This document shows, piece after piece, positions 1-61,791 of a stretch of DNA of 64,000 nucleotides. The notes below the pieces were generated by a model that saw only the letters and a program-made list of their open reading frames with translations, searched no databases and was not told where the DNA came from. Source of the DNA: Candidatus Omnitrophota bacterium (GTDB taxonomy: Bacteria > Omnitrophota > Gorgyraeia > 1-14-0-20-64-10). Position 1 is the first letter of the stretch, and each line of letters begins with the position of its first letter. The stretch covers positions 29,057-93,056 of the forward strand of contig JAHFFE010000005.1 in NCBI GenBank assembly GCA_023248155.1. The letters run 5' to 3'. Made by a program: the position numbers and the translations under genes.

Positions 1-22
1 TGGCTGGTCTAATTTCATTCAG

Positions 23-3000
23 ATGGAATACAGCTGGAGGCTTTTTGCATTGGGAGGGGGGAATCATGTTTATCTAGCGATTTTCATCAACAATGCGATA
101 GACGCGATAGCGGATGAATCGGAAAGACGCGGAGAATCTTACCTGGGCAGAATCAATCTGCGCGCAGGTTCAACGGTTGAAGGATATTCTTTTATCGAAA
201 TCTCTGATAACGGTGCGGGTATCCCTCCCGAAATTCTTCCCGGGATATTTCATGAGGGGGTGAGTACAAAACCGAATGTCAATCTGCCTGAAAGGAGACG
301 ATTGGGAGGATTTGGGACGGCATTCGCGGGAGAGTTCTATTATGGCCCACACTTATTGAATAGGACCTCGGGATGGATTGAGATCGATACCCGAATGGCT
401 AAAGAGAAAAACTCACGTTTTGTAAAATACAGCCCCAGCTCCGGAACCTTGGCACCGTTGAATGTTTCAAGAGGAAGACGAACCGAGGTAGGGACATCGA
501 TCCGTTGGGTTTTTAGACATCTTCCCGCTGCCGGGCAGGAGGAGCGAACGCTTCCGGGTTCTTTTCGGCGGGAAGATTTAGCCAGTTATGACAGCGTGCT
601 TGAATTAGAGAGTCGGACTATTTTGGAAAAGCGTGCGCAGAAGGGATCAGGAGAACTGCTCTGGGTAGGAGGAACAGGGGTGGCTGGTTCCGGAAAGTCC
701 ACATTGTTCGACGCTCTCCATCAGAAACTGCAAGCGGCCGGAGCACATACCTTGCGATTGGGAGAGGATAATGTCGGTTTTTTTGATCTGACTACTCGAG
801 AAAGCTGGAAATCGTCCGAGCCAGTTCGCTGGAGAAATTATCGCGATTGGCTGCGCTGGGACAATATCCAAAAAACGCTGGACCAAATCCGTAAGGCAGG
901 CGTAGCGGCTGCCACGCAGGGTCCGCAAGCCATCTACCTGAAACAGATTTACGATCGTCCCTCTGGAACGGTGTCCGATCCGAAAGATCCCGTTTGGGTA
1001 TTCCCCGACACGATCGTGCTTTATGATGGAACCGCTCTTTCGGAAGGAGATCCGTATCCGCTGGGAATGTTCGACCACCTCATCCTTCTGGATATTTCTT
1101 ACGAGGCTAGTCTCAGGAATCAGATCGGCCGGGCAGAACGGCTGGGCCGCCAACCCGGACGAGTAGAGGAAATTACATCCCAGGTAAGTTTTCCTTTTTG
1201 GAGAGATACGGTTGCCAGAAATCATCCCGAAAGAGTAGCCCACTCCATTTATGACATGACCGATTTTAATCATCCCGTTCGCTTGAGTTATCAATCCGCA
1301 GGGCTGGAGGAGAATATTAAGAAGGTGGAAGGCAATCTCGCATTTGAGACCCATGTTTTGTCAGACCCCTTGTTTTTGGCTGTTTTCGGAGACGATTCTT
1401 CAGCCAACGTGATTCCATCGCCTGCGCTCATGAACAAGAGAGAACATGACCGCTCCAGCTTTCCGGGGTTCTCAGATATCCAGAGAGCGGTTGCTCAATC
1501 GTTGCCTGGAGCGGTTGAGTTGTTGGAGATTGCCAAGCGCGGGAATGTTATCGTGGCGAATGCTTCCAAACTTCTAGAAAATCCATCCGATCCTGAAATA
1601 ATTCCCGAAATTTCATGGGGAGGAACACGGGAAGAAAGGACTTTGAGGATTATTTGGGAGGAAAGACTGCATTTGCTGGACGACCGACTGGAATTGTCGG
1701 ACTATGAGAAATGGAAAAAGATAGGTAATGAAATATGGGCAACCAACCATCCGCGGGTGGTATCGGCCCGGAAAATAATTTTGGATTCCCGCAGGTGGCG
1801 CCCTCCGCTGGACAATGTAAAGATGATGTTTGTTGCGGCGGAAGTTCTGCCGCTCTTTTTTGTGGAGTTTCGAGATGAATTCTTCGAACAGCATGTTTGG
1901 CCTATTCTTCAGCAGGTTTTCAGTCCGGAGTCTTTGGAAGTGCTGCTCCGGCTTCGAGAAGAGAGCCGGCCTACTTCTGAGGAAATACAAAACCTTCTGA
2001 ATGCTGCCGCGGCAGTCAGCGCTCCTTCGGATTCCGCTGCTGGGCAGGAGGAAGATGTCAGAAAACCCGTCCGAGCATTCCTTCAAAAACAGCTGGGGCT
2101 CCAGGTGGAGGATTCCATCCTGGACAGGATTATTACCGATCCTACCCAAGGCAATGTTTCCACGCAGTTAGAACCATTAATTGAAACCCAGCTAAAAGCC
2201 GGTGATAAGGTCAGGGCAACGAAGCGAATTCCCGGGGTTGTTTCCCAGCTAGGGCCAATCATTAGTAAAGCAAAAAGAGAAGTTGCTGAAAAACAGGTCC
2301 AGAAAACCCGGCAAGAAATCGCTTGGGTTCGTAGTGTTGTTCTTCCTGGGATGCGGCAATTTTTTGAGGGAGGAGATCCGGCAGATCCTCTGGAATTTTA
2401 TCGGGCTGTCCGGGATTTTTCAGCCGCTGGAAAAGAATGGAAAGAGTTGGTCGATTCTTATTTGCGGCAGCTTCCTCCGCAACAATCGGGGATATCGCTG
2501 CAGGAAGAAGGATCTCTTTTTTCAGATTTTCTCAAATGGATGAACGACCGCTGGTTTATCACTCGGGGGCACCTTCTTTTTCCTGGCGATGCTGCACTCG
2601 TCAGCAATATGGGGGAGGTGATGGACTATTTAAAGATGGGCCGCATTGAGGAGACCCGTATTTATAACTATGCTGATCACGAAATTCCCGTTTATTTTGT
2701 CCGGGAAGATGAGCCCGTTGCTCACAATGTCACGCTGGCTGGCCATGGACATACCGGCTATATCTTCGTGCGCCACAGCGCTCTGGACGCGAAGAATGCC
2801 ATTCTGGAATCTATCGGCGCGCATGCAGACAACTTTTATCGGCTTTCCGATGCACAGATACGAGAAGAAGGGTACATTCCGGATATTTTTCGTCTGTCTG
2901 TCAAAGTGACCGGCAGTCTCTATCGGCGTATTGTTGCCAACCGTTCTACCATGCGAAACCACCTTCAGGAAAATCTGCTTTTTGAAGAGCTTCGCCACTG

Positions 3001-6000
3001 GATGGTTCATACCGCCATTGAAAATGCGGCCGGTTTCAAATTTTCTTCGGCGAACGACCAATTCTTTGAACTTTATGCACAACATTTATTGCGTCCAAAT
3101 GGAGTGCTTCGTTCTATTTTTAACAGTGCCGATGTTTTTCAAAGTCCTTTGGTAGAGTCACGCATGGAATTGGGCCTTGGAATTTATGAAGTGGAAGGAT
3201 CTTTTGGGCGAGCCGCCCAGTCTCTGGAAGATTTAGAATCGGTTCTCCAGGGCTGGATTGATATCTTTATCAATCTTGAAGATGTCGACGCCGGATACGA
3301 TCAGTACGCTTCGGACGCTGTTCTTGGGATCCGCCTTCTTGCAGACCAGTTAGGGATTTCAAATCCTTCGGAGCGATTGACCCCACAGAATTGGGATCAG
3401 CTTGATAAAAGACGGTTGGTTGAAATGGCTGGAGAGATCTACGAACGCTTGGAAGAGGCCTTCCAGGCATTGGGACTTCTTTCACAGGAAGAGTTTGTTA
3501 TTCCGCTTTCAGATGTGGCTACTCTTGTTTCCGAAAAGAAGATTTCTTCTTCTGCCGGGCAGGAGGAGGGCATTGAAACCATCCTGCTGATTGGCTCCGA
3601 TGAGGATGAGATAGCGCGGGTTCGGGGCATCGCCGAAGAAATTTTTCCTTACGCGGATATCCAGCAACTGCCGCTTCCGTTGCCAACCGCCATAAATTTC
3701 AGGCGACTCGATGTGGCGGTTTTGGTGGATTTCGATGAGAGCGCCAAAGAAACGCTGGCGCAGGCCTTCACGGCAAGGAAGATTGCCCATCTCATCGCGC
3801 CCGACCATTGGGATGAACGGCTGGAAGATTACGATCTGCGGGAAGCATTCGAAGGATTTCGTCCCAGCGGGCTGGAGGAAAAGGAAAACCCAGGACATTC
3901 GGCTTGGCTGCAAACAGACCGTTTGATTGATAATTTCCTTCGCGGGCACCCCGGCGGACCATTGACAGAAAAAGAGCTTGCCGCTGGGATCGATAGGCAT
4001 CCGCGGACCATGGCGAATCATAATTACAAAGATCGCGTTAGAGCGGAAAACACCCGGCGCGTTTCGCTGAATCCGCCGCTCCCTCCTATTTTCCTGGATA
4101 GAAGAGAAGTTATTATCACAGCGCTCCGGAAACATCCGGGCGGTTTTTTGACGGCCAAGCAACTTGCGAAGCTTACAACGTTAAGCACGACAGCGCTCGA
4201 CCATAACGGCTACAGGACACTCATCGATGAAGAAAATGCCGTACGGTTGAAGCGGGGTCCTTTCGTTATGCCGATTACTCTTACCGCCCGAAAGGCCATT
4301 ATCGCTGCTCTTCAGCGCCATCCGGGAGGGTCTCTTCGCTTGAACTGGTTAATTTCTCTCGCGAAGGTGGACCGAAAAACTCTCCGCAATCATGATTATC
4401 GAACGCTGATTAAAGAGGAGAACACGCGGCGCTCCCAACAAAAGCCGCCTCGGCCGGCCATCCAATTGCCCCGCGTTGGGAATCCATCCGTTGTTGTTGC
4501 CGCCGGGCAGGAAGAGCGGGTTTTGGAAACCCATCGGACTTCTTTTGAGATTAAGCTGGCGGATTTTGACGGAATCGAGGGAGGGATTTTAGTTGTAAAC
4601 GGGCAGAACCGATATTTTCGGTCAATCGAGAACCGATTTTTCCGCATTAACCTGGAGACAGGAGTTAGGTTGGAACCTCTTCCCAATAGGGATTTGCTGG
4701 CCGACATTCTGTTTGGATTGTCACAGCTTACCGCAGAGATGATGAACCGCCATCCGCCGCGATCAGTCGTTCAGATGGCACAAGAAAAAGGGCATGCGGT
4801 TGCGAACCCCTCAGTAGATATCACGCTGGACTATACGCCGACCCATGTCCTGGTTTCCGTAAATGGGGATAAAGCCTATCGAATTAATAGAAATCAGGCG
4901 GTTGACATCGAGTCTCTTCATGGGTTTGAGTTGGATAATGCGATAAAAGGAATGGTTGTGGCGTTTGCCATGGGTTCTATTGTTTTGGATGATGAGCTGC
5001 GCCCGCTGTTTCGGGGATTGAATAATACGCAGTTTTTCGCCAAGTTGCCCAGCGAAGTCCGTGCTGCCGGTCTGGAGGAGAATCCGGAGCCCACTGCGGT
5101 TCTGCCTTCTCAGGTTACTGGTTTTGATTTCGCAGGCCAGGATACGCCGGAACTTCAGCAGAGTAATGTGCTGGCGCTTCTTGAATTTCTTAAGGTGGAT
5201 GCGAACGGATTGGTTGTCAATGTTGGATCAGGGGTGCGGCCGCTCACCTTTGGGGATTCTTCTCGGCGCAAGCCGTTGAATCTGGATACGCAGCCATATG
5301 CGCGGCCAGCCGCCGATCGAGCCGGCGCGAACTATGCCGACGCGGATATCATTCAAATCGCCGGAGCGGCTTCTCCGGGGAATACGAATGCACTTCCCGA
5401 TGTTCTTTTGTTTTACCGGATGGGTTCGTTTGTCGATATCTATCATGGGCATAACGCTCAGAAATTCTGGCAGGCGGCATGGAAGCTCGTTCGTCCCGGG
5501 GGATGGATATTGCTGATGAATCCACCCAACCTGGAATTCCCCATCCAATCTCTGGATTATTCGTATCAGCAGGTGCTTTCTTCCCTGGTGTCCGGAAAGA
5601 AACCGTCGGAGGTACACGTCGTTTCACCCGATGGGACAATGGCGAATGCGTTGGCGATTGCTATTCGCAAGCCTGCTGCCGGGCAGGAGGAGAACGGTTG
5701 GCGGGATGTCGCTGGACGATTTTGGGGACGAGTCAAGGATTGGTTTGTTGCCAAACCGATTAATTTGGATGCGCGTCGCGACGCGATGAAGACGGGTGCT
5801 TCACTTGGATTATGGCGCCCGCCCGATCCGGCGGCAGTACCGCTGTTGACGCTGGATCAGGAGGGGCAGGTGGGTAATTTGATCCATGAAATCAATGTTG
5901 CGCGTTCTAATGCAGAACAAGGTCGAGGCGATCCCGCGTTTACATATGCTGCTGGCAAGACATTGATTTCCGCGCGGCAATGGGGTCAGGCACTGCAACG

Positions 6001-7879
6001 CTTGAAAGAAGAGGGAGTGCACCCAAGCCATCTCTCCAGAATTGAAACTGCATGGACCGCATTTGAGCGGATATTAGAGACCAAAGCGACTACGCCGACC
6101 CGCCAGCTTTTGTTGGAAGGTTTCCGAACCGGAATACGTGATCCGGAACATGCCTCTCTTTGGGAAATGGCGCATGTGCGTGCCCGTATTCTGAATCACC
6201 TCGGTGTTCCAGTGGACGGAGGGGCGGTTTATCACGATGCAGTCGCTCAACATATGAGCTTGGATCAATTAAGTCAACGATTGGCTGCACAGTACGCCGA
6301 CAGCGTTCCGTTGGTTGTCAGTGCGGGTGGGGAGTTGACTGCCCGGGGAGTGCCAGTTCAGTTGAGTGATTTGAGTTCTTTGTTGGGAAAATTATTGGTC
6401 AGAGAGGTATCCCCTGATACGGAAAGTCTCATGTTTTGGTCGGACAATCCGGCTAATGTGGTAGAAATTATAGGCGCGGAATCTGTTATTGGGGACTGGC
6501 ATGAATTAACGCTGCACAACGCTTTTATTGAAGCCAGAGAAAATGTGTGGCAGCGTCTGAGAAATCGATTCGGTCCATCGGCCCCGAAGCCCTGGCTTCC
6601 CTGGAACGCGTCTGAGTTTCCCAATGATTCAAATACTGTAACGGATTGGGAACAATTTCTTTATGATCGAGGAGAAGTGTCGGTTTTGTTTCATCGCCGC
6701 GAATTGTTGCGGTATGCCGTAAAAACTCGAATCGATGAGTTGAAAGCAGAAGGCCGTTGGAATCCAGCGCAATCGCTCGATGATTTGATACGCCGCATTG
6801 ATGAGATGACTCCTGACGAGGTAGAAGCGGGTATTCGAGAGGAGCAATCGGTTGTGGCTGCAAATATTGTAGAGCCGTTGGCTGCCGTTGAGCCAAATTT
6901 GGCCTGGATAACAAAGGATTCGCAACAGCCGTTGCGGCAATGGGCCGAATTGCTTTCCGGATTTGCGTTGTTGGAACCGGTAGTTTTACGCATAGAGGTG
7001 GGAGAAGCCGGTTGGCCCGTAATTAGATGGAGAAGTTCTCCCAAACAGTCATTCAGGACTTTAAGTTCCAATTCTGATTTGTATCGGGCGCTTAGTTCCT
7101 CCGGTTGGTTTCGGAATCTGAAATATCCCCGCTACAGCATTGGTATTGATCAGAGTGTTTCTGCTGAACGGCTGGAACAGGAGTTTGGCGAGACAAGCCA
7201 GTTATGGAGAACCACGGCAGATGAAGATGGTTTGATCCGTTATGATATTGCTCTTCGTGCCGGTCTGCCTGTTTACACCGCCGGGCAGGAGGAAAATCAG
7301 GTGCAGCCTCGACGGGAATTTTTACAGCGGGTAGGTCTGCCGGTTGGCTTGACGGCTCTTCGTTATTTTTCCGGACTATTCGTGAATGGAAATCCAAATC
7401 AAATGGTGGATGATCCGGAACTGGCTGGCCGGTTGAATATTGAAAAAGGCCGGAAGATAACGCTGGTTGCAAATGTCGACTCTGCTTTTGTTCAAACACC
7501 GAATCGGATTTTGGCGCAGCCAGGTGCGTTAATTCCACGCCAGTGGCAGGGAATTCCGGTAGAAGTTTTGCCACGAAACATCGAAGCGGCACGGATAAAG
7601 TTGGACGCGATCAATGCTGATGCGGCCGATGTCGCTCTGTTGAATTATTCGGTTGTTGGCTCTGAGGATATGACCGGATGGGATGAACTGCTGCGCTCGC
7701 GCGAAATTGCCGGATTGGCGCTATCGGAAGATAGCTTGAACAGCGTCAATACACTACTTCCAAGCGAACTCGCTACTTTACTGGGTGCCGTGCGGATGGC
7801 AGGTGGTCTGATGGTTCCGGTTGGAGTAGAGGTTTATATCCGCAGTACCGAAGAAAAACAGTTGTTGTTGGCCGCCTAA
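23..7879 (+). CDS. Giant multidomain protein, 2618 aa in the window and probably 5'-truncated at the window edge. It has an HK-type GHKL ATPase domain, a P-loop uridine-kinase-like domain, 3 wHTH-like repeats and a class-I SAM-methyltransferase-like domain, with a recurrent [AST]G[QL]EE motif.
   Basis: The ORF runs 7857 nt without a stop, and the frame stays open upstream to position 2. The N-box 'NNAIDA', the G1 box 'DNGAGIP' and a 'GGFGT' G2-like box indicate an HATPase_c domain. Walker A 'GVAGSGKST' lies at nt 678-704, followed by 'DHLILLDISYEASLRNQIGRAER', which resembles uridine kinase/PRK. 'VVNVGSGVRP' and 'LVRPGGWILLMNPP' resemble methyltransferase motifs I and post-I. Confidence 0.8.
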   Translation: MEYSWRLFALGGGNHVYLAIFINNAIDAIADESERRGESYLGRINLRAGSTVEGYSFIEISDNGAGIPPEILPGIFHEGVSTKPNVNLPERRRLGGFGTAFAGEFYYGPHLLNRTSGWIEIDTRMAKEKNSRFVKYSPSSGTLAPLNVSRGRRTEVGTSIRWVFRHLPAAGQEERTLPGSFRREDLASYDSVLELESRTILEKRAQKGSGELLWVGGTGVAGSGKSTLFDALHQKLQAAGAHTLRLGEDNVGFFDLTTRESWKSSEPVRWRNYRDWLRWDNIQKTLDQIRKAGVAAATQGPQAIYLKQIYDRPSGTVSDPKDPVWVFPDTIVLYDGTALSEGDPYPLGMFDHLILLDISYEASLRNQIGRAERLGRQPGRVEEITSQVSFPFWRDTVARNHPERVAHSIYDMTDFNHPVRLSYQSAGLEENIKKVEGNLAFETHVLSDPLFLAVFGDDSSANVIPSPALMNKREHDRSSFPGFSDIQRAVAQSLPGAVELLEIAKRGNVIVANASKLLENPSDPEIIPEISWGGTREERTLRIIWEERLHLLDDRLELSDYEKWKKIGNEIWATNHPRVVSARKIILDSRRWRPPLDNVKMMFVAAEVLPLFFVEFRDEFFEQHVWPILQQVFSPESLEVLLRLREESRPTSEEIQNLLNAAAAVSAPSDSAAGQEEDVRKPVRAFLQKQLGLQVEDSILDRIITDPTQGNVSTQLEPLIETQLKAGDKVRATKRIPGVVSQLGPIISKAKREVAEKQVQKTRQEIAWVRSVVLPGMRQFFEGGDPADPLEFYRAVRDFSAAGKEWKELVDSYLRQLPPQQSGISLQEEGSLFSDFLKWMNDRWFITRGHLLFPGDAALVSNMGEVMDYLKMGRIEETRIYNYADHEIPVYFVREDEPVAHNVTLAGHGHTGYIFVRHSALDAKNAILESIGAHADNFYRLSDAQIREEGYIPDIFRLSVKVTGSLYRRIVANRSTMRNHLQENLLFEELRHWMVHTAIENAAGFKFSSANDQFFELYAQHLLRPNGVLRSIFNSADVFQSPLVESRMELGLGIYEVEGSFGRAAQSLEDLESVLQGWIDIFINLEDVDAGYDQYASDAVLGIRLLADQLGISNPSERLTPQNWDQLDKRRLVEMAGEIYERLEEAFQALGLLSQEEFVIPLSDVATLVSEKKISSSAGQEEGIETILLIGSDEDEIARVRGIAEEIFPYADIQQLPLPLPTAINFRRLDVAVLVDFDESAKETLAQAFTARKIAHLIAPDHWDERLEDYDLREAFEGFRPSGLEEKENPGHSAWLQTDRLIDNFLRGHPGGPLTEKELAAGIDRHPRTMANHNYKDRVRAENTRRVSLNPPLPPIFLDRREVIITALRKHPGGFLTAKQLAKLTTLSTTALDHNGYRTLIDEENAVRLKRGPFVMPITLTARKAIIAALQRHPGGSLRLNWLISLAKVDRKTLRNHDYRTLIKEENTRRSQQKPPRPAIQLPRVGNPSVVVAAGQEERVLETHRTSFEIKLADFDGIEGGILVVNGQNRYFRSIENRFFRINLETGVRLEPLPNRDLLADILFGLSQLTAEMMNRHPPRSVVQMAQEKGHAVANPSVDITLDYTPTHVLVSVNGDKAYRINRNQAVDIESLHGFELDNAIKGMVVAFAMGSIVLDDELRPLFRGLNNTQFFAKLPSEVRAAGLEENPEPTAVLPSQVTGFDFAGQDTPELQQSNVLALLEFLKVDANGLVVNVGSGVRPLTFGDSSRRKPLNLDTQPYARPAADRAGANYADADIIQIAGAASPGNTNALPDVLLFYRMGSFVDIYHGHNAQKFWQAAWKLVRPGGWILLMNPPNLEFPIQSLDYSYQQVLSSLVSGKKPSEVHVVSPDGTMANALAIAIRKPAAGQEENGWRDVAGRFWGRVKDWFVAKPINLDARRDAMKTGASLGLWRPPDPAAVPLLTLDQEGQVGNLIHEINVARSNAEQGRGDPAFTYAAGKTLISARQWGQALQRLKEEGVHPSHLSRIETAWTAFERILETKATTPTRQLLLEGFRTGIRDPEHASLWEMAHVRARILNHLGVPVDGGAVYHDAVAQHMSLDQLSQRLAAQYADSVPLVVSAGGELTARGVPVQLSDLSSLLGKLLVREVSPDTESLMFWSDNPANVVEIIGAESVIGDWHELTLHNAFIEARENVWQRLRNRFGPSAPKPWLPWNASEFPNDSNTVTDWEQFLYDRGEVSVLFHRRELLRYAVKTRIDELKAEGRWNPAQSLDDLIRRIDEMTPDEVEAGIREEQSVVAANIVEPLAAVEPNLAWITKDSQQPLRQWAELLSGFALLEPVVLRIEVGEAGWPVIRWRSSPKQSFRTLSSNSDLYRALSSSGWFRNLKYPRYSIGIDQSVSAERLEQEFGETSQLWRTTADEDGLIRYDIALRAGLPVYTAGQEENQVQPRREFLQRVGLPVGLTALRYFSGLFVNGNPNQMVDDPELAGRLNIEKGRKITLVANVDSAFVQTPNRILAQPGALIPRQWQGIPVEVLPRNIEAARIKLDAINADAADVALLNYSVVGSEDMTGWDELLRSREIAGLALSEDSLNSVNTLLPSELATLLGAVRMAGGLMVPVGVEVYIRSTEEKQLLLAA

Positions 7880-8778: not shown

Positions 8779-8788
8779 AAGAGAAGCG

Positions 8789-14259: not shown

Positions 14260-14261
14260 TC

Positions 14262-16137: not shown

Positions 16138-16139
16138 AC

Positions 16140-18117: not shown

Positions 18118-18289
18118 TAACTAGGGGTGCCGGGCATGGGGACCGTGGACACGCTCGGAATCGACTACCGATTCCGTCGCTCTGTCTGCGGCCTTGCCGA
18201 AGAACATTTGGATTTGGCCTCCGCCAAGGTCCACTTGCCCCATATCCCGGCCCGCCTCTTCGCTTTTATTCTCAGGCATGGGTATCTGA

Positions 18290-18910: not shown

Positions 18911-18926
18911 ACAAGGAGAACCTCAG

Positions 18927-19931: not shown

Positions 19932-20276
19932 ATGAGCGAACCAAAACAGCCGGTTGCTTCGGAGTCGGAACTTCCCGAAGGATCTTCCAAGCTGGTCACT
20001 GTGGACGGTAAGGAAGTGGCGCTGATTCGTGCCGAGGGCGCACTCTACGCCGTTGGTAACCGCTGTCCGCATCGCAGCGGGCCGCTGGTCCGCGGAAAAG
20101 TAGAACACGTCCCGGAGAATCCGGCCGATCCATCCTCCAAAACAACGCTGGCGGTTCGCTGCCCAATTCACGGCTGGTTGTTCGAACTTTCGACGGGCCG
20201 TTGTTTAACGCGGCCCAGCGCTTCGGTTCCAACTTATCCGGTTGAATGCGATAACGGACAGATTTGCATTGGTTAG
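19932..20276 (+). CDS. Small Rieske [2Fe-2S] protein (NirD-like)
   Basis: It has 'CPHRSGPL' and 'CPIHGW' CxH...CxxH Rieske ligand boxes. It is 114 aa. Confidence 0.75.
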   Translation: MSEPKQPVASESELPEGSSKLVTVDGKEVALIRAEGALYAVGNRCPHRSGPLVRGKVEHVPENPADPSSKTTLAVRCPIHGWLFELSTGRCLTRPSASVPTYPVECDNGQICIG

Positions 20277-21630: not shown

Positions 21631-21634
21631 TCTT

Positions 21635-39583: not shown

Positions 39584-42500
39584 ATGAAATTGACCAACTT
39601 CCGGAAGTGCAGCTGGAATCGATCCCCGTCTCTGTTTCTGGTGGTTTCCCTGTGTTTCTTGCAAATGCCGGTGACTTTCGCGCAGGCAATGGTCGATGAA
39701 GCTGTTCCGCCAACGAAAGCAATGACAGACGGATCTTTTGTTCCCGGCGAGCTGATTGTGAAGCTCAATGAAGGAAAGACCATGGAAGATTTGGCGGATC
39801 TGAATAGCGAATTTAATATCGTTTCAAGCGACCGGCTCTTTCAACATCTTGAGGCTTCTTCCGGGGATATCGGGAAGATGAAGAAAAAACTCAAAGAATT
39901 GAATGGCTTTCATGAGTCCTGGTACTGGCAGTTCGATAAGAATTCCAAAGAATACAAGGATTACCTGGCTAGACTTGAACAGCAGAAGAAAATTCTTGAG
40001 GCCGAGATCCAAAAAGCCGAACAGAGGCAGCAAATCTCCGATAAAGCCATCCAGAACAATCGCCTGGAAGATATCTATAAACTGGAAGTGGCCGAAAAGA
40101 CAACCGATATTTTGGCGATGGCCAGGACTTATTCAGCCCATCCCGCGGTGAAATATGCCGAGCCCAACTACGAAGTGAAAGTCAATTTCGAGCCCAATGA
40201 CCAGTACTGGACCAGCTCGGGAAGCTGGGGACAGCCCTACGACGATCTCTGGGGCCTCAAAAAAATCAAAGCGAATCTCGCCTGGGACAAGAGCAAGGGA
40301 GAGGGGATCATCGTCGCCGTGATTGACACCGGCGTGGATTATAATCACGAAGACATTAAAGACAATATGTGGATTAATCCCGCGGATGGGACATATGGGT
40401 TTAATTTTACCGCCAGCGGGGAAAGGGCTTATTTGATCCGAGATCCCATGGATGATCATGGTCATGGCACCCACTGCGCGGGAACCATTGCCGCCATTCA
40501 GAATAATGGTGTCGGCATTACCGGCGTGGCGCCGAGGGCGCGGATCATGGCCATTAAAGGTCTAAATAGAGAGGGGTCTGGCAGCGCGAGCAATCTTTCT
40601 GAAAGCGTCATTCAGGCCGTTCAAAGCGGAGCCGATGTCTTGAGCAATTCGTGGGGAGGAAGCGGGAGAAGCGATGTTTTTGAAGATGTTTTCAGGACGG
40701 CTCAGCAGAGTGGTGTCGTTTCTGTGGTGGCGGCAGGTAATGATAATGTAGATGCTTTGGATTTTCACCCCGCGTATTTGCCATCCGTCATTACGGTGGC
40801 GGCTTCCAATCCCGATGATGTTCGATGTTCTTTTTCCAATTACGGGGCTAAAGCCGATGTCTCGGCTCCGGGCGGCGACAGCGCCGGAACGAACGATGGA
40901 GACAATTTTTGGGGACGCAATATTCTGTCGCTTCGTTCCGATAACAAGGGTGACCCGACGGATATGTATTATCAGCCGCCCGGCGCGCATGAGCAGCAGG
41001 TGGTGGGCGGTAAATATTATCGGGCGCGCGGCACGTCCATGGCCTGTCCGCACGTCGCCGGAGTGGTGGCGCTGATTTTATCTGAACATCTTGATTTTTT
41101 GAATAAAGATCTGAATTTAGGCTCCCAAACCGGCAAAGTTCTTAGTATTTTGAAGGCGACCGGCGAACCCGTTTCGGAATCCAACCCGTTAAAATTCGTA
41201 GGTCCTCGGGTAAACGCATACGCAGCTCTTCAAGTCACACAGGAGCTGCCGGTAGGCATTTTAAAATCGATCGACGGTGAGCAATCTCCTTTGCCGCTTG
41301 TCCGCGGCATCGCTGGCGGGGCTAATTTCCTTCGATATGCGGTTTATTATGCCCATGCTGAGGATCCAACCTCCTGGAATCTGGTGACCGAATCGTCGAT
41401 ACCTGTTTTGGATGATCTGGCGACTGCCGATCCGGATGACGGGATCCTGAGCGACGCTCTTACCGTGGATAAGACCGGCTCGTACCTCGTGAGGTTGATT
41501 GTTTATTCCGTGGATGGCAAGCAGGTGATATCCCAAGTATCGTTTACGATTCCCAATGCGATTACAGCGCCGCTTTCCAACGACTTTATCAGCAGAAATA
41601 CAACGGCCGCCATCAAGGCGGATCTTAAGGGTGTTTATCAGGATTATGTTGTTGAATGGGGTGAGGGGAAGACCCCCCTGGAATGGAGAATCGCCGGAAT
41701 TACTCGTCTTCATCCCGGGCCGGGGGCGGATTTTTCAGGTGACATCGCTCTGTGGAATACCGCGCTCGTTCCATCGAGTTCTTATGCCAACGGCAGTTTC
41801 TACACGATCCGGGTAGGAATTCAAAAGTCGGGCGGCTGGGTTTACTCGTACAAAAACCTTATTTATCTTGATGCGGTTATGAAGCCCGGTTGGCCGCAGT
41901 ATATTCGGCCCGCCTGGTGGGATTTAAAGGCCGAGGATCAGGAACGGTTTAAGCAAGGAGATACGACCGATGTTACGGCAGCGGATCTTGACGGCGACGG
42001 GCAAAAAGAGATCATCGTTTGCGTTGCTAAGGTCAGAGATGAACAGCAGGGGAGCCTCTCTGTTTATAACAGCGACGGTTCTTTGCGCTGGTCAATAACC
42101 GTAGAAGATCTTCAATACACTGTTCCGGTCATTGGCGATATTAACGATGACGGAAAACAGGAAATATTCCTCGCGAATTCTTCTACGGAAGACAAGCTTT
42201 ACGGTTTCAAGTACGACGGCGGTGTTTTTCCGGGTTTCCCGGTCTCATTGGAGCGTTCCTCGTTTTTTATGATGGCCGATTTAAAATCGCCCGGAAACGC
42301 CGGTAAACGCCTCATCGGGATTTCTAAATTCTCCTATAGCGGAGAAGGTAAAACAGCGGTCATCTTGAAAAAAGACGGATCCGTTCAAAAGAAATTTAAA
42401 TTTACTAAGGGATCGAATTTAAGCGAAGTAATCCGATCACAGATCCCTGCGGTAGGCAATTTTGACAATGACCCGGAACTCGAGATTGTTGCCGTACAAG

Positions 42501-44296
42501 CCAACGGTGTCCAAGCGTTTAACCCCAACGGCACTCTTTGCGCGGGCTGGCCTTCTTCGGCCAATCAAATGCCCGAAGGTTATGATATTTACGGGTGCCC
42601 GGCCGTGGGAGATATCGATGGCGACGGATATGATAATGTGGTTGTGGCCGCTTTCAAAACACGTAGAGTGTCGGCAACCGGCGGTTTCAAGATTCTCAAT
42701 GAAGACCTGGCTGTTTTTGCTTTCGACAAGAACGGAGGCATCATGCCTGGCTGGCCCGTGCTGATGAATCAATTGTCTGACCTGATGACAAAGATGCCGT
42801 ACAGCCGCTATCAGTCTCCCGCGCTTGCGGATTTTAATGGAGACGGAAAACTTGAGATCGCGTTCGGCGTGGGGCCTTTTCATTATTTGTTCGACTACCG
42901 AGGCAATGTTCTTCCGGGCTGGCCGAGAAGCGTGCCGGCTCCGAGTATTCACCATGTGCAGATGGCCATTGGCGACGTGGACGGCGATGGAACGCCGGAT
43001 CTGATCTCTTCTGCCGGTGGTTTGCAAAAAGAGATCTTTACGGAGGAATCCTTGAGCACCACAGGAGGAATTTTTGCCTGGAAATTTGACGGGACACCCA
43101 TTGATCTTAATCCGGATCCGTCTATGGATTTCCTCCCGACCGAATTTGAAAGCAAGCCGCCCTTGACTCTTTCGGATATCGATGCGGATGGAAAAATAAA
43201 TATTGTTGCCAGTACTACGCAGGATTTCGTATTTGCCGAACATCAAGTCGCTCCAGTCAGCAAGCAGAGGCGCTCCATTAATGTCTGGGGATTGAACACC
43301 GCTTACGATGCCTCTACGATGCAGTGGCCTATGTATCAGCACGACACCATGCGCACGGGCCGTTACGTGAGTTCGGTTGAGGTTACTCCGGATCCTAATC
43401 CTGATCCGACACCCGTGCCAACCTCGAAGCCGGCTAAACCTTCTAGCCTGGGTGCGACTGCTGTTTCTGTTTCTCAGATCAACCTGGCATGGGCAGACAA
43501 CGCTAACAACGAGACGGGCTTTAAGATATACCGAAGCCTCACGGACTCGAATTATGTTGAGGTGGCCACGGCGTCTGCCAACGCGGTTTCATTCAGTGAT
43601 TTGAATCTTAACGCCGATACCCGATATTATTACAAGGTCTCGGCTGTTAATGCCGCCGGAGAATCGGCCAAATCCAGCAAGGCGGATGCCCGGACGAACG
43701 CGGTTCCGCAGCCGCCGGCTAAACCGTCTAACCTGGGTGCGACTGCTGTTTCTGCGTCTCAGATCAACCTGGCATGGGCAGATAACGCTAGCAACGAGAC
43801 GGGCTTCAAGATATATCGAAGTCTGACGGACTCGAACTATGCCGAGGTCGCTACGGCGCCTGCCAACGCGGTGTCATTCAGTGATGGGGGTCTGAACTCC
43901 GGCACCCGGTATTATTACAAGGTCTCGGCTTTCAATGCCGCCGGAGAATCGGCTTTCTCAAGCCAGGTTTCTGCGGTGACAATGTCTGTTACAGATCCAG
44001 CCCCTGCTCCGGATCAGGTTCCGGCGAAACCGGATAATCTTGGAGCACAGCAAATTTCAAGTTCCAGGATTCGGCTGACTTGGACGGATCGTTCGAGCAA
44101 CGAAACGGGTTTCAAGATATACAGAAGCATATCCCACAGGGCGCAGGATTCTATCTTGGTCGCTACCGTCTCGGCCAATGTCACGCACTACACCGATACC
44201 GGCCTTGATCGCGGACACCGCTATGGTTACAGGGTTTCTGCCGTTAATGGATCGGGTGAGTCCGAAAAAGCCGGCCCTGTCTATGAAAGGCTATAA
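39584..44296 (+). CDS. Giant secreted S8 serine protease 2, with signal peptide, propeptide, S8 domain, FG-GAP repeats and 3 C-terminal fibronectin-III domains
   Basis: Triad motifs are 'VAVIDTGVDYNHEDI', 'HGTHCAGTIA' and 'GTSMACPHVAGVVALI'. The FN3 repeats show 'TGFKIYRS...YYYKVSA'. Confidence 0.9.
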   Translation: MKLTNFRKCSWNRSPSLFLVVSLCFLQMPVTFAQAMVDEAVPPTKAMTDGSFVPGELIVKLNEGKTMEDLADLNSEFNIVSSDRLFQHLEASSGDIGKMKKKLKELNGFHESWYWQFDKNSKEYKDYLARLEQQKKILEAEIQKAEQRQQISDKAIQNNRLEDIYKLEVAEKTTDILAMARTYSAHPAVKYAEPNYEVKVNFEPNDQYWTSSGSWGQPYDDLWGLKKIKANLAWDKSKGEGIIVAVIDTGVDYNHEDIKDNMWINPADGTYGFNFTASGERAYLIRDPMDDHGHGTHCAGTIAAIQNNGVGITGVAPRARIMAIKGLNREGSGSASNLSESVIQAVQSGADVLSNSWGGSGRSDVFEDVFRTAQQSGVVSVVAAGNDNVDALDFHPAYLPSVITVAASNPDDVRCSFSNYGAKADVSAPGGDSAGTNDGDNFWGRNILSLRSDNKGDPTDMYYQPPGAHEQQVVGGKYYRARGTSMACPHVAGVVALILSEHLDFLNKDLNLGSQTGKVLSILKATGEPVSESNPLKFVGPRVNAYAALQVTQELPVGILKSIDGEQSPLPLVRGIAGGANFLRYAVYYAHAEDPTSWNLVTESSIPVLDDLATADPDDGILSDALTVDKTGSYLVRLIVYSVDGKQVISQVSFTIPNAITAPLSNDFISRNTTAAIKADLKGVYQDYVVEWGEGKTPLEWRIAGITRLHPGPGADFSGDIALWNTALVPSSSYANGSFYTIRVGIQKSGGWVYSYKNLIYLDAVMKPGWPQYIRPAWWDLKAEDQERFKQGDTTDVTAADLDGDGQKEIIVCVAKVRDEQQGSLSVYNSDGSLRWSITVEDLQYTVPVIGDINDDGKQEIFLANSSTEDKLYGFKYDGGVFPGFPVSLERSSFFMMADLKSPGNAGKRLIGISKFSYSGEGKTAVILKKDGSVQKKFKFTKGSNLSEVIRSQIPAVGNFDNDPELEIVAVQANGVQAFNPNGTLCAGWPSSANQMPEGYDIYGCPAVGDIDGDGYDNVVVAAFKTRRVSATGGFKILNEDLAVFAFDKNGGIMPGWPVLMNQLSDLMTKMPYSRYQSPALADFNGDGKLEIAFGVGPFHYLFDYRGNVLPGWPRSVPAPSIHHVQMAIGDVDGDGTPDLISSAGGLQKEIFTEESLSTTGGIFAWKFDGTPIDLNPDPSMDFLPTEFESKPPLTLSDIDADGKINIVASTTQDFVFAEHQVAPVSKQRRSINVWGLNTAYDASTMQWPMYQHDTMRTGRYVSSVEVTPDPNPDPTPVPTSKPAKPSSLGATAVSVSQINLAWADNANNETGFKIYRSLTDSNYVEVATASANAVSFSDLNLNADTRYYYKVSAVNAAGESAKSSKADARTNAVPQPPAKPSNLGATAVSASQINLAWADNASNETGFKIYRSLTDSNYAEVATAPANAVSFSDGGLNSGTRYYYKVSAFNAAGESAFSSQVSAVTMSVTDPAPAPDQVPAKPDNLGAQQISSSRIRLTWTDRSSNETGFKIYRSISHRAQDSILVATVSANVTHYTDTGLDRGHRYGYRVSAVNGSGESEKAGPVYERL
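43423..44290 (+). repeat. Three tandem FN3-coding repeats (~288-bp period) at the 3' end of protease 2. Units 1 and 2 are about 90% identical at DNA level.
   Basis: 'ccggctaaaccttctagcctgggtgcgactgctgtttctg...' at 43432 repeats at 43720. Confidence 0.8.
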
Positions 44297-59143: not shown

Positions 59144-61549
59144 TTGATGCGTTCACTCAAATTCCAATTTTTAAACCATCCTCTCTTAAGGGGAATAGCG
59201 TTGATTTTAGCGCTTTCCCTGGTTTTTTCTGCGCCTGCTTTTGCGTTGCGCCCAACGGGTCTTGAAGAATCAAAGTCAAAGATTGAGCTTCAGAATGCCT
59301 TACTCAATTCTTCTGGTTTGGAGGAAAATGGCTCTACTCGTAGGGAATGGATAGGGAAATTGGGCATAACCGGTTTGGTAGCACTTGTTTTTATATGGAC
59401 AGGGGTCCTCAGTTTTCGTGACATGGTTGGGAGAGATACTCTTCCCAACCCACAATTTGTTATTTCACCGCATCAACAAATAGGCCCTTTACCGGTTATA
59501 CAACCGTCTCCGAAGGATCTCTTGCGATTGAGTGACACGCTGGCGCAACAATTGGCAGAGGATCCCGGATTCTTCGGTTGGTTTGCGGGAGTCTCTGATC
59601 AGGAAGCGGCTCAGACTCAACAGGATATGGCTTTTTATATCCGGTATCTGGAGTACCGCAATCAATGGTTGTTGCAGCATCTGGCGCGTACTCAAGGGAT
59701 AAAACTTTCGGAAGAGGACCAAAAAGAGCCGATTGATCCGCATTATGCCGACTATTATAGGGATCAGATTTCCTCAGATCCCAATCGGTTGGAGCGTTTT
59801 AAAAGAACCCGTTCTGAAATATATCTGGACATTGCCGCACAACCTTTTCCGGATGCGATTGATTTTGAGGGAAAGATTGGTCTGGATGAAAGAGCGTTTC
59901 CGAGAAGTACTCTTCGGCTTTTAAATAAATTAATGGAACACAAAGAGCGGTATCTCTCTCTCGAAAAGAAACTGGCGACTGTCCCATCGGATCAGAAATT
60001 ATCCGTTGTTTTAAGCCGCCTGCCTGTTCTGTTTCGAATGGTGCAGGAGGGAGCTATTTCGACAGAGACGGCAACTGCCGAATTGAAAACCGCGCTCGGC
60101 TTGGTCGGAGCAGATAGGCTCTCTTCTTATTTTAGCGCGCTGATCGACTGGACTGCGTTGAGCCGCACAGAAAGAGACCCCAAAAAGATTCGGCCTGTTT
60201 TGAAAGAGTTGGCAGAATTGTTGCGGGCCGATAATTTCTTTCTGGATCCTTATCTGATAGCCCGTCCGCAGGACGAGGATCCTTATTGGGACAGTTTGGT
60301 TTTCAAGATAGTTCATGTAGGAAAAATCGGGGAGAAAGAGGTCCACTTCCTTCAGCGAATTCGCGGCGGATTATCGCGCGGACAAAAAATAACCCAGGCA
60401 GGGTACCATCATTATGCCTTGGGCGATCAGAAAGAGATATCGGTTGTTCTTATGGATCAACTGTGGGATACCGCCCAGCTTGTCAAAAGTGGAATTGATG
60501 ACGGGTCTTATGCCATCGTCGATTGGTCCGATTTTGCAAAAAGTCAGCGTCTTCAGACCGGCATTGCAAGAACGCTTCGCCAATTTGTACAGCAGGCTGA
60601 GTTGCCTTCCGATAGGCCATCTCTTTGGCGTCTGGCAGTTTATAATTCAGCGCTACATGAGCATACGCATGCTTTAGGGAATTCGAGCGAATATTGGACC
60701 AATTTGGTGGAGCTTGCCGTGGGGCATTCGGGAATGCAGATGCCGCACCTTCATAGCCAGATATACGACTCTGATGTGCCGCCGCATTACAAAAAGGCTT
60801 CAAATCAAATACTCGATGGTTTAAAAGATTGGAGAATTAATCCGTTGGAGGTTGACAGCGTTTCCCAACTGCGCGGTGGGGCGGGGGCTTTGTTGCGCCG
60901 AGAGGGTAGAAATCTTTTCGATTATTTTTCATTGCCGGCTGTTCAAGAAGATCTGAAACAGTTGAGAGAGGATCTCGAAAAAATTCCTCCGCCGAGAGAG
61001 TCGTTGTTGAACAACCTGGTTCAGGCCATATCCCCAAAGAAATCGGGTGCCGGACTGGAAGAGTTTTTCTTGGAAAGCGCTGTCGCGTGGCCGGAAGTCC
61101 GAAGTGGTCTTCTGCGGAAAGGATGGGTGGCCGTTCCAGGCGGATATCTTGTCGAAACCCGCCAGATTTCTTCTCAAGAGCCGTTGATTATGCAAACTGG
61201 TTTAGAGGAGCCCGGGGGCCTTCCTGCGAGCGTACCGGTTATCCGGACTAATGAAACGACAGTTGATGGGATGCTTATGTTCCTTCTGGAGCAGTCTGGA
61301 CAAAATAATTTCAATGTGGTTTTTTCAACGGCTTATTTCGATCTCGCGCAGGCAAGAACTGCCGTTCCATCCAGCGGGCTTAGACCCGGCTCTGTTCTTG
61401 TCAGGCCTGGATTGGCAATTCAGGCAAATCAGTTAGGGGCCGCGCTGATCATTTCGAAGGAAGTAGGAACGATTTATATAGTTCAGATGACAGAATTTAC
61501 CTCTCCCGATTGGGATGCGCCGCTGCTCTATATCCAGGCGCAGGTTTAG
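59144..61549 (+). CDS. Secreted/membrane-anchored 801-aa protein with an HEXXH zincin-like motif and four [ST]G(A)GLEE motifs. Function unknown.
   Basis: The signal peptide is 'LILALSLVFSAPAFA', and a TM segment 'LGITGLVALVFIWTGVLSF' follows. 'ALHEHTHALGN' carries the HExxH motif. The GLEE motifs are 'PTGLEES', 'SSGLEEN', 'GAGLEEF' and 'QTGLEEP'. Confidence 0.7.
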   Translation: MMRSLKFQFLNHPLLRGIALILALSLVFSAPAFALRPTGLEESKSKIELQNALLNSSGLEENGSTRREWIGKLGITGLVALVFIWTGVLSFRDMVGRDTLPNPQFVISPHQQIGPLPVIQPSPKDLLRLSDTLAQQLAEDPGFFGWFAGVSDQEAAQTQQDMAFYIRYLEYRNQWLLQHLARTQGIKLSEEDQKEPIDPHYADYYRDQISSDPNRLERFKRTRSEIYLDIAAQPFPDAIDFEGKIGLDERAFPRSTLRLLNKLMEHKERYLSLEKKLATVPSDQKLSVVLSRLPVLFRMVQEGAISTETATAELKTALGLVGADRLSSYFSALIDWTALSRTERDPKKIRPVLKELAELLRADNFFLDPYLIARPQDEDPYWDSLVFKIVHVGKIGEKEVHFLQRIRGGLSRGQKITQAGYHHYALGDQKEISVVLMDQLWDTAQLVKSGIDDGSYAIVDWSDFAKSQRLQTGIARTLRQFVQQAELPSDRPSLWRLAVYNSALHEHTHALGNSSEYWTNLVELAVGHSGMQMPHLHSQIYDSDVPPHYKKASNQILDGLKDWRINPLEVDSVSQLRGGAGALLRREGRNLFDYFSLPAVQEDLKQLREDLEKIPPPRESLLNNLVQAISPKKSGAGLEEFFLESAVAWPEVRSGLLRKGWVAVPGGYLVETRQISSQEPLIMQTGLEEPGGLPASVPVIRTNETTVDGMLMFLLEQSGQNNFNVVFSTAYFDLAQARTAVPSSGLRPGSVLVRPGLAIQANQLGAALIISKEVGTIYIVQMTEFTSPDWDAPLLYIQAQV

Positions 61550-61791
61550 CGGATAAGCTTGTTGATCTGGCGGGCTAGCGCGAAATCTTTTTGCGTGAGT
61601 CCGCCGGCGGAGTGGGTCGTGAGCGTCAAGCGGACCTTCTTGTAGCGGATGTCGATGTCGGGGTGATGATCGGCCTTTTCTGCAAGCCGTGCCACTTGAT
61701 TCACGAACCGGATGGCCGCAGGAAAACCGCCAAACTCAAACTGCTGTTTGATTTTTCCGTTCTTTCGATCCCACCCGGCAACTTTCTGCAT
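61546..61791 (-). CDS. phhB: Pterin-4-alpha-carbinolamine dehydratase
   Basis: It has the 'EKADHHPDI' PCD/DCoH signature. It is 81 aa. Confidence 0.8.
   Translation of the reverse strand: MQKVAGWDRKNGKIKQQFEFGGFPAAIRFVNQVARLAEKADHHPDIDIRYKKVRLTLTTHSAGGLTQKDFALARQINKLIR

Follow-up and report, generated by a model that had tools for sequence, protein, structure and literature searches.

In a window of 64,000 nucleotides of Candidatus Omnitrophota DNA (the whole stretch analysed here), the pentapeptide [AST]G[LQ]EE recurs in two large proteins, an HExxH protein of 801 residues (the target) and a giant, and the question is what this motif does in them. Omnitrophota are uncultured, ultra-small bacteria with a presumed predatory or parasitic life, and they stand out by very long proteins whose function is unknown. 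An earlier note on this DNA had proposed a common recognition system, in which either both proteins are substrates of one enzyme or the target is itself the cognate enzyme. The target ORF was confirmed at 59144..61549 of the forward strand and encodes 801 residues if begun at TTG; the likely true start is the ATG at 59147, which is also that of the identical database protein P0001. The features that the note had ascribed to it (signal peptide, four motif copies, hydrophobic segment and HEHTH) were all located, as listed here with residues in the 801-aa numbering:

59147..59245, forward strand, residues 2-34: signal-peptide-like N-terminus (MRSLKFQFLNHPLLRGIALILALSLVFSAPAFA, then LR), with a basic n-region and an AxA site, ending AFA/LR
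59255..59269, forward strand, residues 38-42: motif copy 1, TGLEE, then S; part of the N-terminal tag LR-x-x-G[LQM]EE-S
59312..59326, forward strand, residues 57-61: motif copy 2, SGLEE, then N; RR-E-W plus a hydrophobic segment begin 4 residues on
59360..59428, forward strand: hydrophobic segment LGITGLVALVFIWTGVLSFRDMV, hydropathy 2.10 over 19 residues
59513..61048, forward strand, residues 124-635: central domain of a four-member family, with blocks DPGFF, VLxRLPVL and HExxHxxGxxxE
60656..60691, forward strand: HEHTH-ALG-NSS-E, candidate zinc site (H505, E506, H509, G512, E516), invariant in 4 homologues
61049..61063, forward strand, residues 636-640: motif copy 3, AGLEE, at the boundary between central and C-terminal domains
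61064..61546, forward strand: C-terminal domain of type A, about 165 aa, alpha/beta, always C-terminal and ending ..LLYIQxQ[AV]
61196..61210, forward strand, residues 685-689: motif copy 4, TGLEE, then P, within the folded C-terminal domain

The N-terminal segment reads MRSLK..LLRG / IALILALSLVF / SAPAFA, then LR, and contains a 19-residue window with a hydropathy of 2.27. With its basic n-region, hydrophobic h-region and A-x-A signal peptidase site, it is predicted to direct Sec-dependent secretion, and the same design (signal peptide, then A-L-R) recurs in P0002, P0004, P0006, P0016, P0022 and the full giant, P0031. Motif copy 1 aligns with the GMEES, GLEES and GQEES of P0002, P0016, P0022 and P0031. 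Past copy 2, an RR pair at residues 66-67 is followed by the strongly hydrophobic segment (residues 73-95), which could anchor the protein in the membrane or represent a Tat-like h-region. The motif copies bracket the N-terminal tag and part the HExxH domain from the C-terminal domain. An alignment of 16 proteins places the onset of the C-terminal domain at copy 3 in most of them, and the G-L-E-E of this copy is invariant in 4/4 members of the HExxH family, that is, at the end of the domain in homologues of 24-31% identity. Copy 4 is a degenerate structural look-alike inside the C-terminal domain: it sits in a high-confidence part of the AF2 model of the target, and the corresponding residues of relatives are G-[LVI]-x-x-P, of which only the G and the P are near-invariant.

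The giant contributes the following features:

1..7879, forward strand: giant class member, 2618 aa in the window (full protein P0031, 2736 aa)
530-544, 1298-1312, 2039-2053, 3554-3568, 3866-3880, 4502-4516, 5066-5080, 5678-5692 and 7280-7294, forward strand: motif copies of the giant, which delimit modules

Its ORF (23..7879) has nine in-window copies of [AS]G[LQ]EE and no in-frame stop 5' of nt 23, so that the reading frame leaves the window; with the part outside it, the full protein gains a signal peptide and a further two copies, 11 in total. HATPase_c and P-loop kinase modules were found between the motifs, and the final module, which follows nt 7294, shows homology to the P0022 C-terminus (E 6e-20). 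Comparison of target and giant by BLASTP and hhalign disclosed no similarity except the motif. The description of the two proteins as otherwise unrelated does not wholly hold, since the N-terminal tag and the Cys-free composition are common to both. The frequency of G[LQ]EE exceeded by far that expected from composition both in the target (4 observed, 0.042 expected; Poisson P 1e-7) and in the giant (9 observed, 0.166 expected; Poisson P 2e-13), and 0/20,000 shuffles reached the observed count for either. In the 20.2 kaa encoded by all 33 large ORFs of the window, 13/14 matches fell in these two proteins, and the sole match in the remaining 16.8 kaa was a DGLEE in LexA, where -1 is not a small residue; none was present in any of the other five frames. 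These figures exclude chance and bear out that the motif is rare, specific to the two proteins and a link between them. At the related loci L001 and L003-L006 it was likewise confined to proteins of the class described below, and absent from the flanking housekeeping genes.

The full HMMER search showed that target and giant are two members of a modular protein class that, by the source names of its members, is specific to Candidatus Omnitrophota, with about 20 proteins of 200-2600 aa carrying the same motif at domain boundaries. Class members are apparently exported, as judged from N-termini that are predicted to be Sec-type signal peptides ending A-x-A/L-R. The N-terminal tag runs from this signal peptide through A-L-R and G[LQM]EE-S to a short predicted helix (about 15 residues) and a second motif; independently folding modules follow, and the C-terminus is taken by a conserved domain of which a few alternative types exist, with [A/S/T]-G-[L/Q]-E-E in an exposed linker at every module boundary. 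In P0004, for example, a GDP_Man_Dehyd domain (83-409) is flanked by motifs at 39/46 and 456, a HATPase_c domain (565-676) is followed by one at 681, and a GNAT domain (1730-1849) lies between those at 1706 and 1874. Both in this protein and in the window giant, the motifs are 5-50 residues outside the Pfam domain envelopes and never within them, so that, as in processed polyproteins, independent modules are parted by a recurring short linker motif. A logo built from 85 G-x-E-E instances in 21 proteins gave A49/S18/T11 at -1 and L48/Q27 at +1, with G/P/N enriched at +4; the linker flanks are of P/A/S upstream and G/P/N downstream. The class is also poor in Cys, with zero residues in target and giant and 0-0.3% in the class members of L005, versus 0.25-3.2% in ORFs that are not secretion-associated. 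The type A C-terminal domain, present in about 17 proteins of 200-2600 aa, was modelled by AF2 with a pLDDT of 77-94 in the target and had no match in Pfam, NCBIfam, PDB or Foldseek searches. Together with a second C-terminal domain and the HExxH domain, it makes up three previously undescribed families defined here. Many class modules look like cytoplasmic, nucleotide-dependent enzymes, which would be odd in exported proteins unless they acted inside another cell. The motif can be used to list class members per genome and to split them into modules for structure prediction; 176 complete genomes of the phylum are reported in a 2026 preprint (bioRxiv 10.64898/2026.06.07.730766).

The genome scan recovered a single locus. 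Word-index searches of proteins, for which the target, the giant and the C-terminal-domain alignment were the queries, brought up nothing beyond the query or a single protein, and metagenome contig scans with the C-terminal domain and the HExxH family yielded zero relatives, as did the viral contig scan. A phage or mobile-element origin was rejected in view of the absence of viral matches. No gene neighbours were conserved across seven loci.

The Gly, Leu and Glu residues of the motif are encoded differently among the four copies of the target, so that it is the peptide that is under selection; P0004, too, retains G-L-E-E under varied codons in its N-terminal copies and in those of the C-terminal domain. 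By contrast, the internal GQEE linkers of any one giant gene were near-identical at the DNA level, reading GCC GGG CAG GAG GAR in the window giant (GGG in 8/9 copies versus a 26% background), where the linker DNA forms a 21-nt dispersed repeat of 7 copies, and TCC GGC CAG GAG GAR in 6/6 linkers of P0004; therefore, part of the conservation reflects recent duplication or gene conversion and not per-copy selection. Moreover, L001 contains a tandem 516-nt duplication with a motif-coding 18-mer at both borders, and module order varies among related giants. From these observations we infer that motif-coding DNA may also serve as a recombination point for module duplication and shuffling, and they illustrate how linker-coding DNA can drive module duplication. 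The same observations are compatible with a passive inter-domain linker that is read by no factor and has been spread by recombination at its coding DNA. Such a linker, however, would be expected to drift in sequence and length, whereas G-L-E-E is kept under varied codons in the target and P0004, does not vary over the four divergent HExxH homologues and recurs across genomes with different codon usage, and we regard this explanation as unlikely.

The homogeneity of the giant linkers also bears on the idea that the selected feature is the nucleic acid, i.e. a Shine-Dalgarno-like CWGGAGGA that pauses ribosomes between domains, with GLEE or GQEE as merely its translation. Indeed, 8/9 giant copies read GGG CWG GAG GA, which contains GGAGGA, and the first Glu is GAG in 8/9 (40% background). 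Yet GGAGGA is found in only 1/4 target copies, one of which reads GGT CTT GAA GAA; conservation extends to the Gly and to the small residue at -1, which add nothing to the Shine-Dalgarno core, and nothing special was seen on the reverse strand or in other frames, so that we find this idea hardly credible. Internal translation starts after the Shine-Dalgarno-like DNA were also rejected, as a consistent in-frame start codon is absent.

A shared recognition system is the most economical explanation, given that one and the same pentapeptide stands at the module borders of about 20 Omnitrophota proteins that have little else in common, and in this respect our results support the earlier proposal. 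Selection at the peptide level and retention of the motif in unrelated contexts across species would point to one common factor that reads it in trans, which would most likely be an endopeptidase parting the modules after export, in polyprotein style. We believe, tentatively and with somewhat less than even confidence, that the motif punctuates the modules of this lineage-specific class and is read in trans, most likely by such a module-separating endopeptidase, and that the target is best seen as a member carrying the sites. Pro follows EE in about 14% of the copies, which argues against a cut directly after EE. The absence of conserved gene neighbours and the cytoplasmic look of many modules weigh against such processing as well.

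Under this reading, some freed modules would start with a twin-arginine-like or anchor segment. P0013, P0017, the 897-aa protein of L005, the L003 giant and, in two places, P0022 have a motif followed after 4-20 residues by RRxF and a hydrophobic stretch; in all, seven proteins carry such segments 4-20 residues past a motif, two of them about 190 aa from the C-terminus. The location of these segments just past motifs hints at module liberation. TIGR01409 scored the equivalent segments of P0022 and of the L005 protein at 21.1 and 15.6 bits, respectively (cut-off, 16.7), and did not match the STRREWIGK segment of the target, which is internal and not N-terminal. By this profile, which describes S/T-R-R-x-F-L-K plus a moderately hydrophobic h-region at the N-terminus, the target does not qualify as a Tat substrate, and the Tat-like segment is a lead for the class and not a finding for the target.

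As to the central domain, HMMER detected three homologues, P0002 (E 6e-64), P0013 (2e-11) and P0017 (6e-6), among 1.84 billion cluster representatives, and we conclude that it is a new lineage-specific family of four detectable members within the broader motif class. HExxHxxGxxxE is invariant in the target, P0002, P0013 and P0017 (alignment A3; 24-31% identity), including H505, E506 and H509. The earlier note had held that the lack of a third zinc ligand would speak against a protease; E516 is a candidate for it and is invariant together with G512, although the spacing matches no standard zincin subclass exactly. The target family resembles zincins of the HExxHxxGxx[HD] (metzincin-like) or HExxH...E (gluzincin-like) types in having HExxH in a predicted helix, then a Gly and, 7 positions past the second His, an acidic residue, both invariant, and differs from the metzincin pattern in a spacing that is one residue longer. 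Searches against Pfam, NCBIfam and PDB gave no match other than a sub-threshold DUF3810 at E 0.056. The AF2 model built with an MSA was confident for residues 130-400, and its pLDDT fell below 50 over 436-560, which makes fold comparison around HExxH uninformative; a single-sequence AlphaFold model (pLDDT 39) was useless. With Foldseek, no PDB or viral structure matched below E 0.004, and neither a meaningful fold nor a zincin came up; the best PDB match (E 0.17) was not a zincin. The zincin fold implied by the earlier note did not emerge from these comparisons; the domain is probably a zinc-binding, zincin-like module anchored near the membrane.

These data also bear on the reading in which the target is the cognate enzyme, which would then be a zincin, exported and anchored in the membrane, with [AST]G[LQ]EE as the site where it cuts both itself and other class members. 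The invariance of HExxHxxGxxxE in 4/4 members is consistent with it, as are the class N-terminal tag, which would take the target along the same route as its putative substrates, a strong hydrophobic anchor that is absent from the giant, and the location of the homologue P0013 10 kb from a 3419-aa motif protein in a second MAG. Viral polyprotein proteases and gingipains are likewise flanked by their own cleavage sites, and with class proteins devoid of Cys a class-encoded protease cannot be a cysteine protease. Nevertheless, the target matches no peptidase family, profile or solved structure, its model is unreliable around HExxH, its gene lies 50 kb from that of the giant among neighbours that are not conserved, and three homologues contrast with class proteins from more sources. 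None was detected from the L005 MAG, although three class proteins are encoded there in 24 kb, an argument weakened by the 50%-identity clustering and by MAG incompleteness. The target behaves as one more motif carrier, and its role as the cognate enzyme, which the earlier note had entertained, is distinctly unlikely. A fuller scheme, in which the motif is the cleavage code of a polyprotein system of exported, Cys-free effector-module chains, the HExxH family, flanked by its own sites, is the dedicated exported metalloprotease and some pieces are re-targeted by twin-arginine-like N-termini, seems to us very doubtful.

Among known systems, MARTX toxins are very long secreted proteins whose unrelated effector modules are parted by short conserved linkers and cut for release, and many of these modules are enzymes that need a cytoplasm. 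MARTX proteins contain their own cysteine protease domain, which cuts after Leu, and leave by type I export without a Sec signal peptide. The likeness to the Omnitrophota class is in the long multi-module proteins with short conserved linkers, which in the class are putative cleavage sites, and in the many modules that look like cytoplasmic enzymes; in contrast, target and giant have no Cys, which precludes a built-in cysteine protease, and show Sec-type N-termini. Gingipain-type polyproteins and other type IX cargo join a signal peptide to catalytic and adhesin modules and end in a conserved domain common to many unrelated cargo proteins, and proteases of the same family process the gingipain precursors at a simple site that recurs, namely a single Arg or Lys. 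The layout of signal peptide, modules, common C-terminal domain and recurring site is similar in the Omnitrophota proteins, but the phylum is another and the recurring site is a five-residue motif; their C-terminal domain, alpha/beta by prediction, had no match in sequence or fold, and no type IX genes were seen within the window.

The position of these conserved C-terminal domains, which in that alone are like the sorting domains of other systems, would also suit a docking site (a handle for a secretion chaperone or translocon) or a site of Glu-Glu modification instead of a cleavage site. The tag LR..G[LQM]EES right after the signal peptidase site resembles a sorting signal, and a type II secretion cluster lies within the same window. 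Against this, the repeat of a sorting signal at every module boundary is hard to explain, class genes are unlinked to secretion genes in other loci and no conserved modification enzyme is encoded nearby; we consider a docking or modification site quite unlikely. Several established motifs were rejected as well: sortase LPxTG, prepilin-peptidase and signal-peptidase I sites because of unsuitable flanking residues, a helix N-cap because +4 is rich in G, P and N, and the G3 box of Ras-like GTPases (DTAGQEE) because A/P/S prevail from -2 to -4, where the Asp of DxxG is not conserved, and the motif lies between domains. A literature search for the strings AGQEE and AGLEE returned Ras peptides only, and the motif strings had no mention in the literature searched, including three Omnitrophota papers.

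Giant proteins of Omnitrophota have been found to adjoin type II secretion loci, and their post-translational cleavage is suspected, with cleavage points stated to be unknown (West-Roberts et al., bioRxiv 10.1101/2023.11.21.568195). The boundary pentapeptide is a concrete, testable candidate for cleavage points in Omnitrophota proteins. The phylum is the same, and the window shows the arrangement described there, in which a type II-like secretion cluster is followed by very large S8-peptidase proteins; the motif proteins (0.2-3.4 kaa), on the other hand, are smaller than those giants, without the many transmembrane helices and away from secretion genes, and the S8 giants of the window have zero motif copies.

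In cyanobactin precursors, the site G(L/V)E(A/P)S is read by the subtilisin-like protease PatA and is repeated in one precursor. These precursors differ from the class in being small ribosomal peptides and not multi-domain proteins. The likeness, a lead only and maybe a coincidence, is in a short G-L-E-x-S element with an S8 reader: copy 1 of the target has the sequence GLEES, and the window encodes four S8 proteases.

The open reading frame at 59144..61549 (+) is real, and its ATG at 59147 is the start of an identical database protein (P0001). The earlier note had remarked that the motif [A/S/T]-G-[L/Q]-E-E occurs four times in this HExxH protein and recurs in the giant protein encoded at 23..7879 (+); the reading frames, the motif counts and sequence shuffling bore this out. 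The features of the HExxH protein are as follows (801-residue numbering):

residues 2-34, signal-peptide-like N-terminus, ending AFA/LR
residues 38-42, motif copy 1, TGLEE
residues 57-61, motif copy 2, SGLEE
residues 66-67, RR
residues 73-95, strongly hydrophobic stretch
residues 505-509, HEHTH
residues 636-640, motif copy 3, AGLEE
residues 685-689, motif copy 4, TGLEE

Along 5980 bases, an ENA contig of the same population (L002) was identical to the window apart from a cluster of five substitutions at 61409-61502 (61409 being L002 3389). The first changes codon 756 from GGA to TGA, so that the C-terminal domain loses its final 46 residues; the difference reflects strain variation or else an error of assembly.

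The portion of the giant protein within the window carries nine [AS]G[LQ]EE copies. From composition, 0.042 copies were expected in the HExxH protein and 0.166 in the giant (Poisson P = 1e-7 and 2e-13, respectively), and in 20,000 shuffles of each protein the observed count was never attained, so that the enrichment is far above chance. The motif is also specific to these two ORFs within the window: of the other 31 large ORFs (16.8 kaa), just LexA had a G[LQ]EE, one copy that lacks a small residue at -1, and the remaining five reading frames contained no motif. Similarly, in the related loci L001 and L003-L006 it was confined to proteins of the class described below and absent from the flanking housekeeping genes. 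One locus of an Omnitrophota MAG (L005) holds three class members within 24 kb, with class genes at 1891-7301 (-) and 9917-13942 (+).

In the giant ORF no stop precedes nt 23, and the window's left edge (1-22) truncates the frame. The full protein (P0031, 2736 aa) has 118 extra residues, made up of a signal peptide, its only hydrophobic segment, and then LRATNAGQEES and SPAGQEER, which brings the motif copies to eleven. Its HATPase_c and P-loop kinase modules are each bordered by motifs, and the C-terminus of the database protein P0022 is a homologue of the last module, which lies past the final motif (E 6e-20). Directly downstream of the giant gene lies a hopanoid/isoprenoid gene cluster (7951-22855, +) that encodes polyprenyl synthetase, DXP synthase, squalene-hopene cyclase, a radical-SAM protein with DUF3463, a member of the phosphorylase superfamily, a second cyclase-like protein and IspH/LytB.

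A word-index search with the HExxH protein returned nothing but the protein itself. HMMER, run in full over 1.84 billion cluster representatives, yielded 22 matches, with the same motif dotted through every relative. These matches divide the protein into a central domain (residues 124-641), found in P0002, P0013 and P0017, and a C-terminal domain (residues 630-800), found in about 17 proteins of 200-2600 aa and always C-terminal. A third type of C-terminal domain, ending ..LGIP..L..SA, is common to two L005 proteins (897 and 807 aa). Three of the domain families, the HExxH domain and two C-terminal domains, are previously undescribed. At the N-terminus of most matches, a signal peptide and A-L-R are followed, after a few residues, by G[LQM]EE-S and then by a predicted short helix and a second motif; the N-terminus of P0022 matches that of the HExxH protein. 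The two window proteins, described earlier as otherwise unrelated, thus share their N-terminal design. An hhalign search of the giant for a module related to the HExxH domain found none. Both lack cysteine entirely (801 aa, and 2618 aa within the window), against 0.25-3.2% in the ORFs of the window not associated with secretion; at a 1.2% background the probability of this is 6e-5 and 2e-14, respectively, and L005 class members have 0-0.3%. Their genes have a GC content of 48-51%, below most neighbours (53-59% in the genes for hopanoids and for the type II secretion core). By the names given in the sources, class proteins belong to Candidatus Omnitrophota, with one MAG labelled 'uncultured Planctomycetia'. 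These results show that there is a lineage-specific class of proteins with common terminal tags and almost no cysteine.

The motif consensus was drawn from 85 G-x-E-E instances in 21 proteins. Around the G at position 0 and E-E at +2/+3, position -1 is A (49), S (18) or T (11), and position +1 is L (48), Q (27) or M (3). The flanks are rich in A/P/S at -2 to -4 and in G/P/N at +4, a composition that indicates an exposed linker and not a helix cap. Along the class protein P0004, Pfam envelopes and motifs alternate:

83-409, GDP_Man_Dehyd, flanked by motifs at 39/46 and 456
565-676, HATPase_c, flanked by a motif at 681
1730-1849, GNAT, flanked by motifs at 1706 and 1874

In the HExxH protein, copies 1 and 2 frame the N-terminal tag, and copy 3, invariant in the four family members, divides the HExxH domain from the C-terminal domain. 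Copy 4 lies within the confidently modelled C-terminal domain, where relatives read G-[LVI]-x-x-P, and we treat it as a structural look-alike. The motif therefore marks module boundaries.

At the DNA level, the four copies of the HExxH protein use varied codons (Gly GGT/GGT/GGA/GGT; Leu CTT/TTG/CTG/TTA; Glu mixed), which shows that selection acts on the peptide. A Shine-Dalgarno-like pause signal, GGAGGA, might instead lie behind the motif; the giant copies fit it, but just one of the four in the HExxH protein does. Within each giant gene the internal GQEE linker DNA is almost identical: GCC GGG CAG GAG GAR in the window giant (GGG in 8/9 copies against a 26% background), forming a 21-nt dispersed repeat of seven copies, and TCC GGC CAG GAG GAR in all six copies of P0004. 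In the giant P0006, a 172-aa module is tandemly duplicated (L001 5508-6564, period 516 nt, 86-88% identity) and has the 18-mer that codes for the motif, GC[GT]GCCGGGCAGGAGGAG, at either end, with a decayed copy nearby encoding AAGQEGG. Linker DNA bounds this duplication and thus also acts as a recombination point for module duplication. Such recombination raises copy number, but leaves the conservation of the motif across species and codons unexplained.

Considering boundary position and peptide selection, a shared recognition system, as the earlier note proposed, is likely. We infer that a single trans-acting factor common to the class would read the motif, most likely an endopeptidase that parts the modules after Sec export. 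A cut directly after EE is unlikely, because Pro follows in about 14% of the copies. A hint at cleavage, short of evidence, comes from seven class proteins with RRxF plus a hydrophobic stretch 4-20 residues past a motif, two of these segments lying about 190 aa from a C-terminus: such an internal signal would make most sense if a cut at the preceding motif exposed it. One P0022 segment passes TIGR01409 (21.1 bits, cut-off 16.7) and two others fall narrowly below, one of them, from an L005 protein, directly following AGLEE. The segments of the HExxH protein and the giant did not match this model, and that of the former looks more like a membrane anchor.

The candidate enzymes are the HExxH domain itself and the S8 proteases encoded at 32822-54809. 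Gene linkage and phyletic data back neither, and in the HMMER scan the HExxH family was far rarer than the class; the part of the earlier proposal that made the HExxH protein the cognate protease is unproven. Four family members have in common DPGFF, VLxRLPVL and an invariant H-E-x-x-H-x-x-G-x-x-x-E, which resembles a zinc site and offers a candidate for the third ligand. The domain had no match in Pfam, NCBIfam or PDB (best DUF3810, sub-threshold, E 0.056). An AlphaFold model built on 11 sequences was confident at residues 130-400 and 660-800, with pLDDT <50 around the HExxH site, and with this model Foldseek retrieved no zincin. Since no family, fold or structure match supports a peptidase, zincin membership is plausible rather than established. 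A TerC-family membrane protein gene (58124-59071, +) ends 73 nt upstream and runs in the same direction, and the gap contains neither a clear terminator nor a clear promoter; the pairing is not kept in L003. TerC proteins have been linked to metal loading of exported enzymes, and this neighbour might be relevant to an HExxH protein that is exported.

The class resembles a known kind: secreted, modular, polyprotein-like proteins in which one linker site recurs. Its closest functional analogues are MARTX toxins and gingipain-type or type IX cargo; by organism, the closest are Omnitrophota giant proteins beside type II-like secretion loci. Many class modules are nucleotide-dependent (NAD-dependent dehydratase, GHKL ATPase, GNAT, P-loop kinase), reminiscent of multi-effector toxins. 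Outside a cell these enzymes would serve no purpose, which is suggestive given that the phylum has been called predatory or parasitic (PMC10066038). Searches of the literature by motif strings and through Omnitrophota papers found no description of the motif. West-Roberts et al. (bioRxiv 10.1101/2023.11.21.568195) state explicitly that the cleavage points of Omnitrophota giant proteins are unknown; through the motif, their processing becomes directly testable.

The Omnitrophota arrangement is present in the window (23209-54809, +) for its S8 giants, but these lack the motif: directly after a type II-like secretion cluster (GspE, GspF, pseudopilins, PilM/GspL-like, secretin) come four very large S8 subtilases of 1314-2160 aa with FG-GAP, Ig-like, PKD, cadherin-like and fn3 repeats. 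About 110 nt before the second giant subtilase gene (39584..44296) there is a c-di-GMP-I riboswitch (RF01051; 39385-39471, +; 58.2 bits, gathering score 35), and its position suggests that c-di-GMP controls a secreted protease of very large size. Finally, at 61791-63951 (-), a ThiS-ThiF-rhodanese fusion (490 aa) adjoins a PLP-dependent cysteine-synthase-like gene and, in L002, also a NifU-like gene; the locus has the look of a pathway in which a sulfur carrier protein provides the sulfur for cysteine or cofactors.
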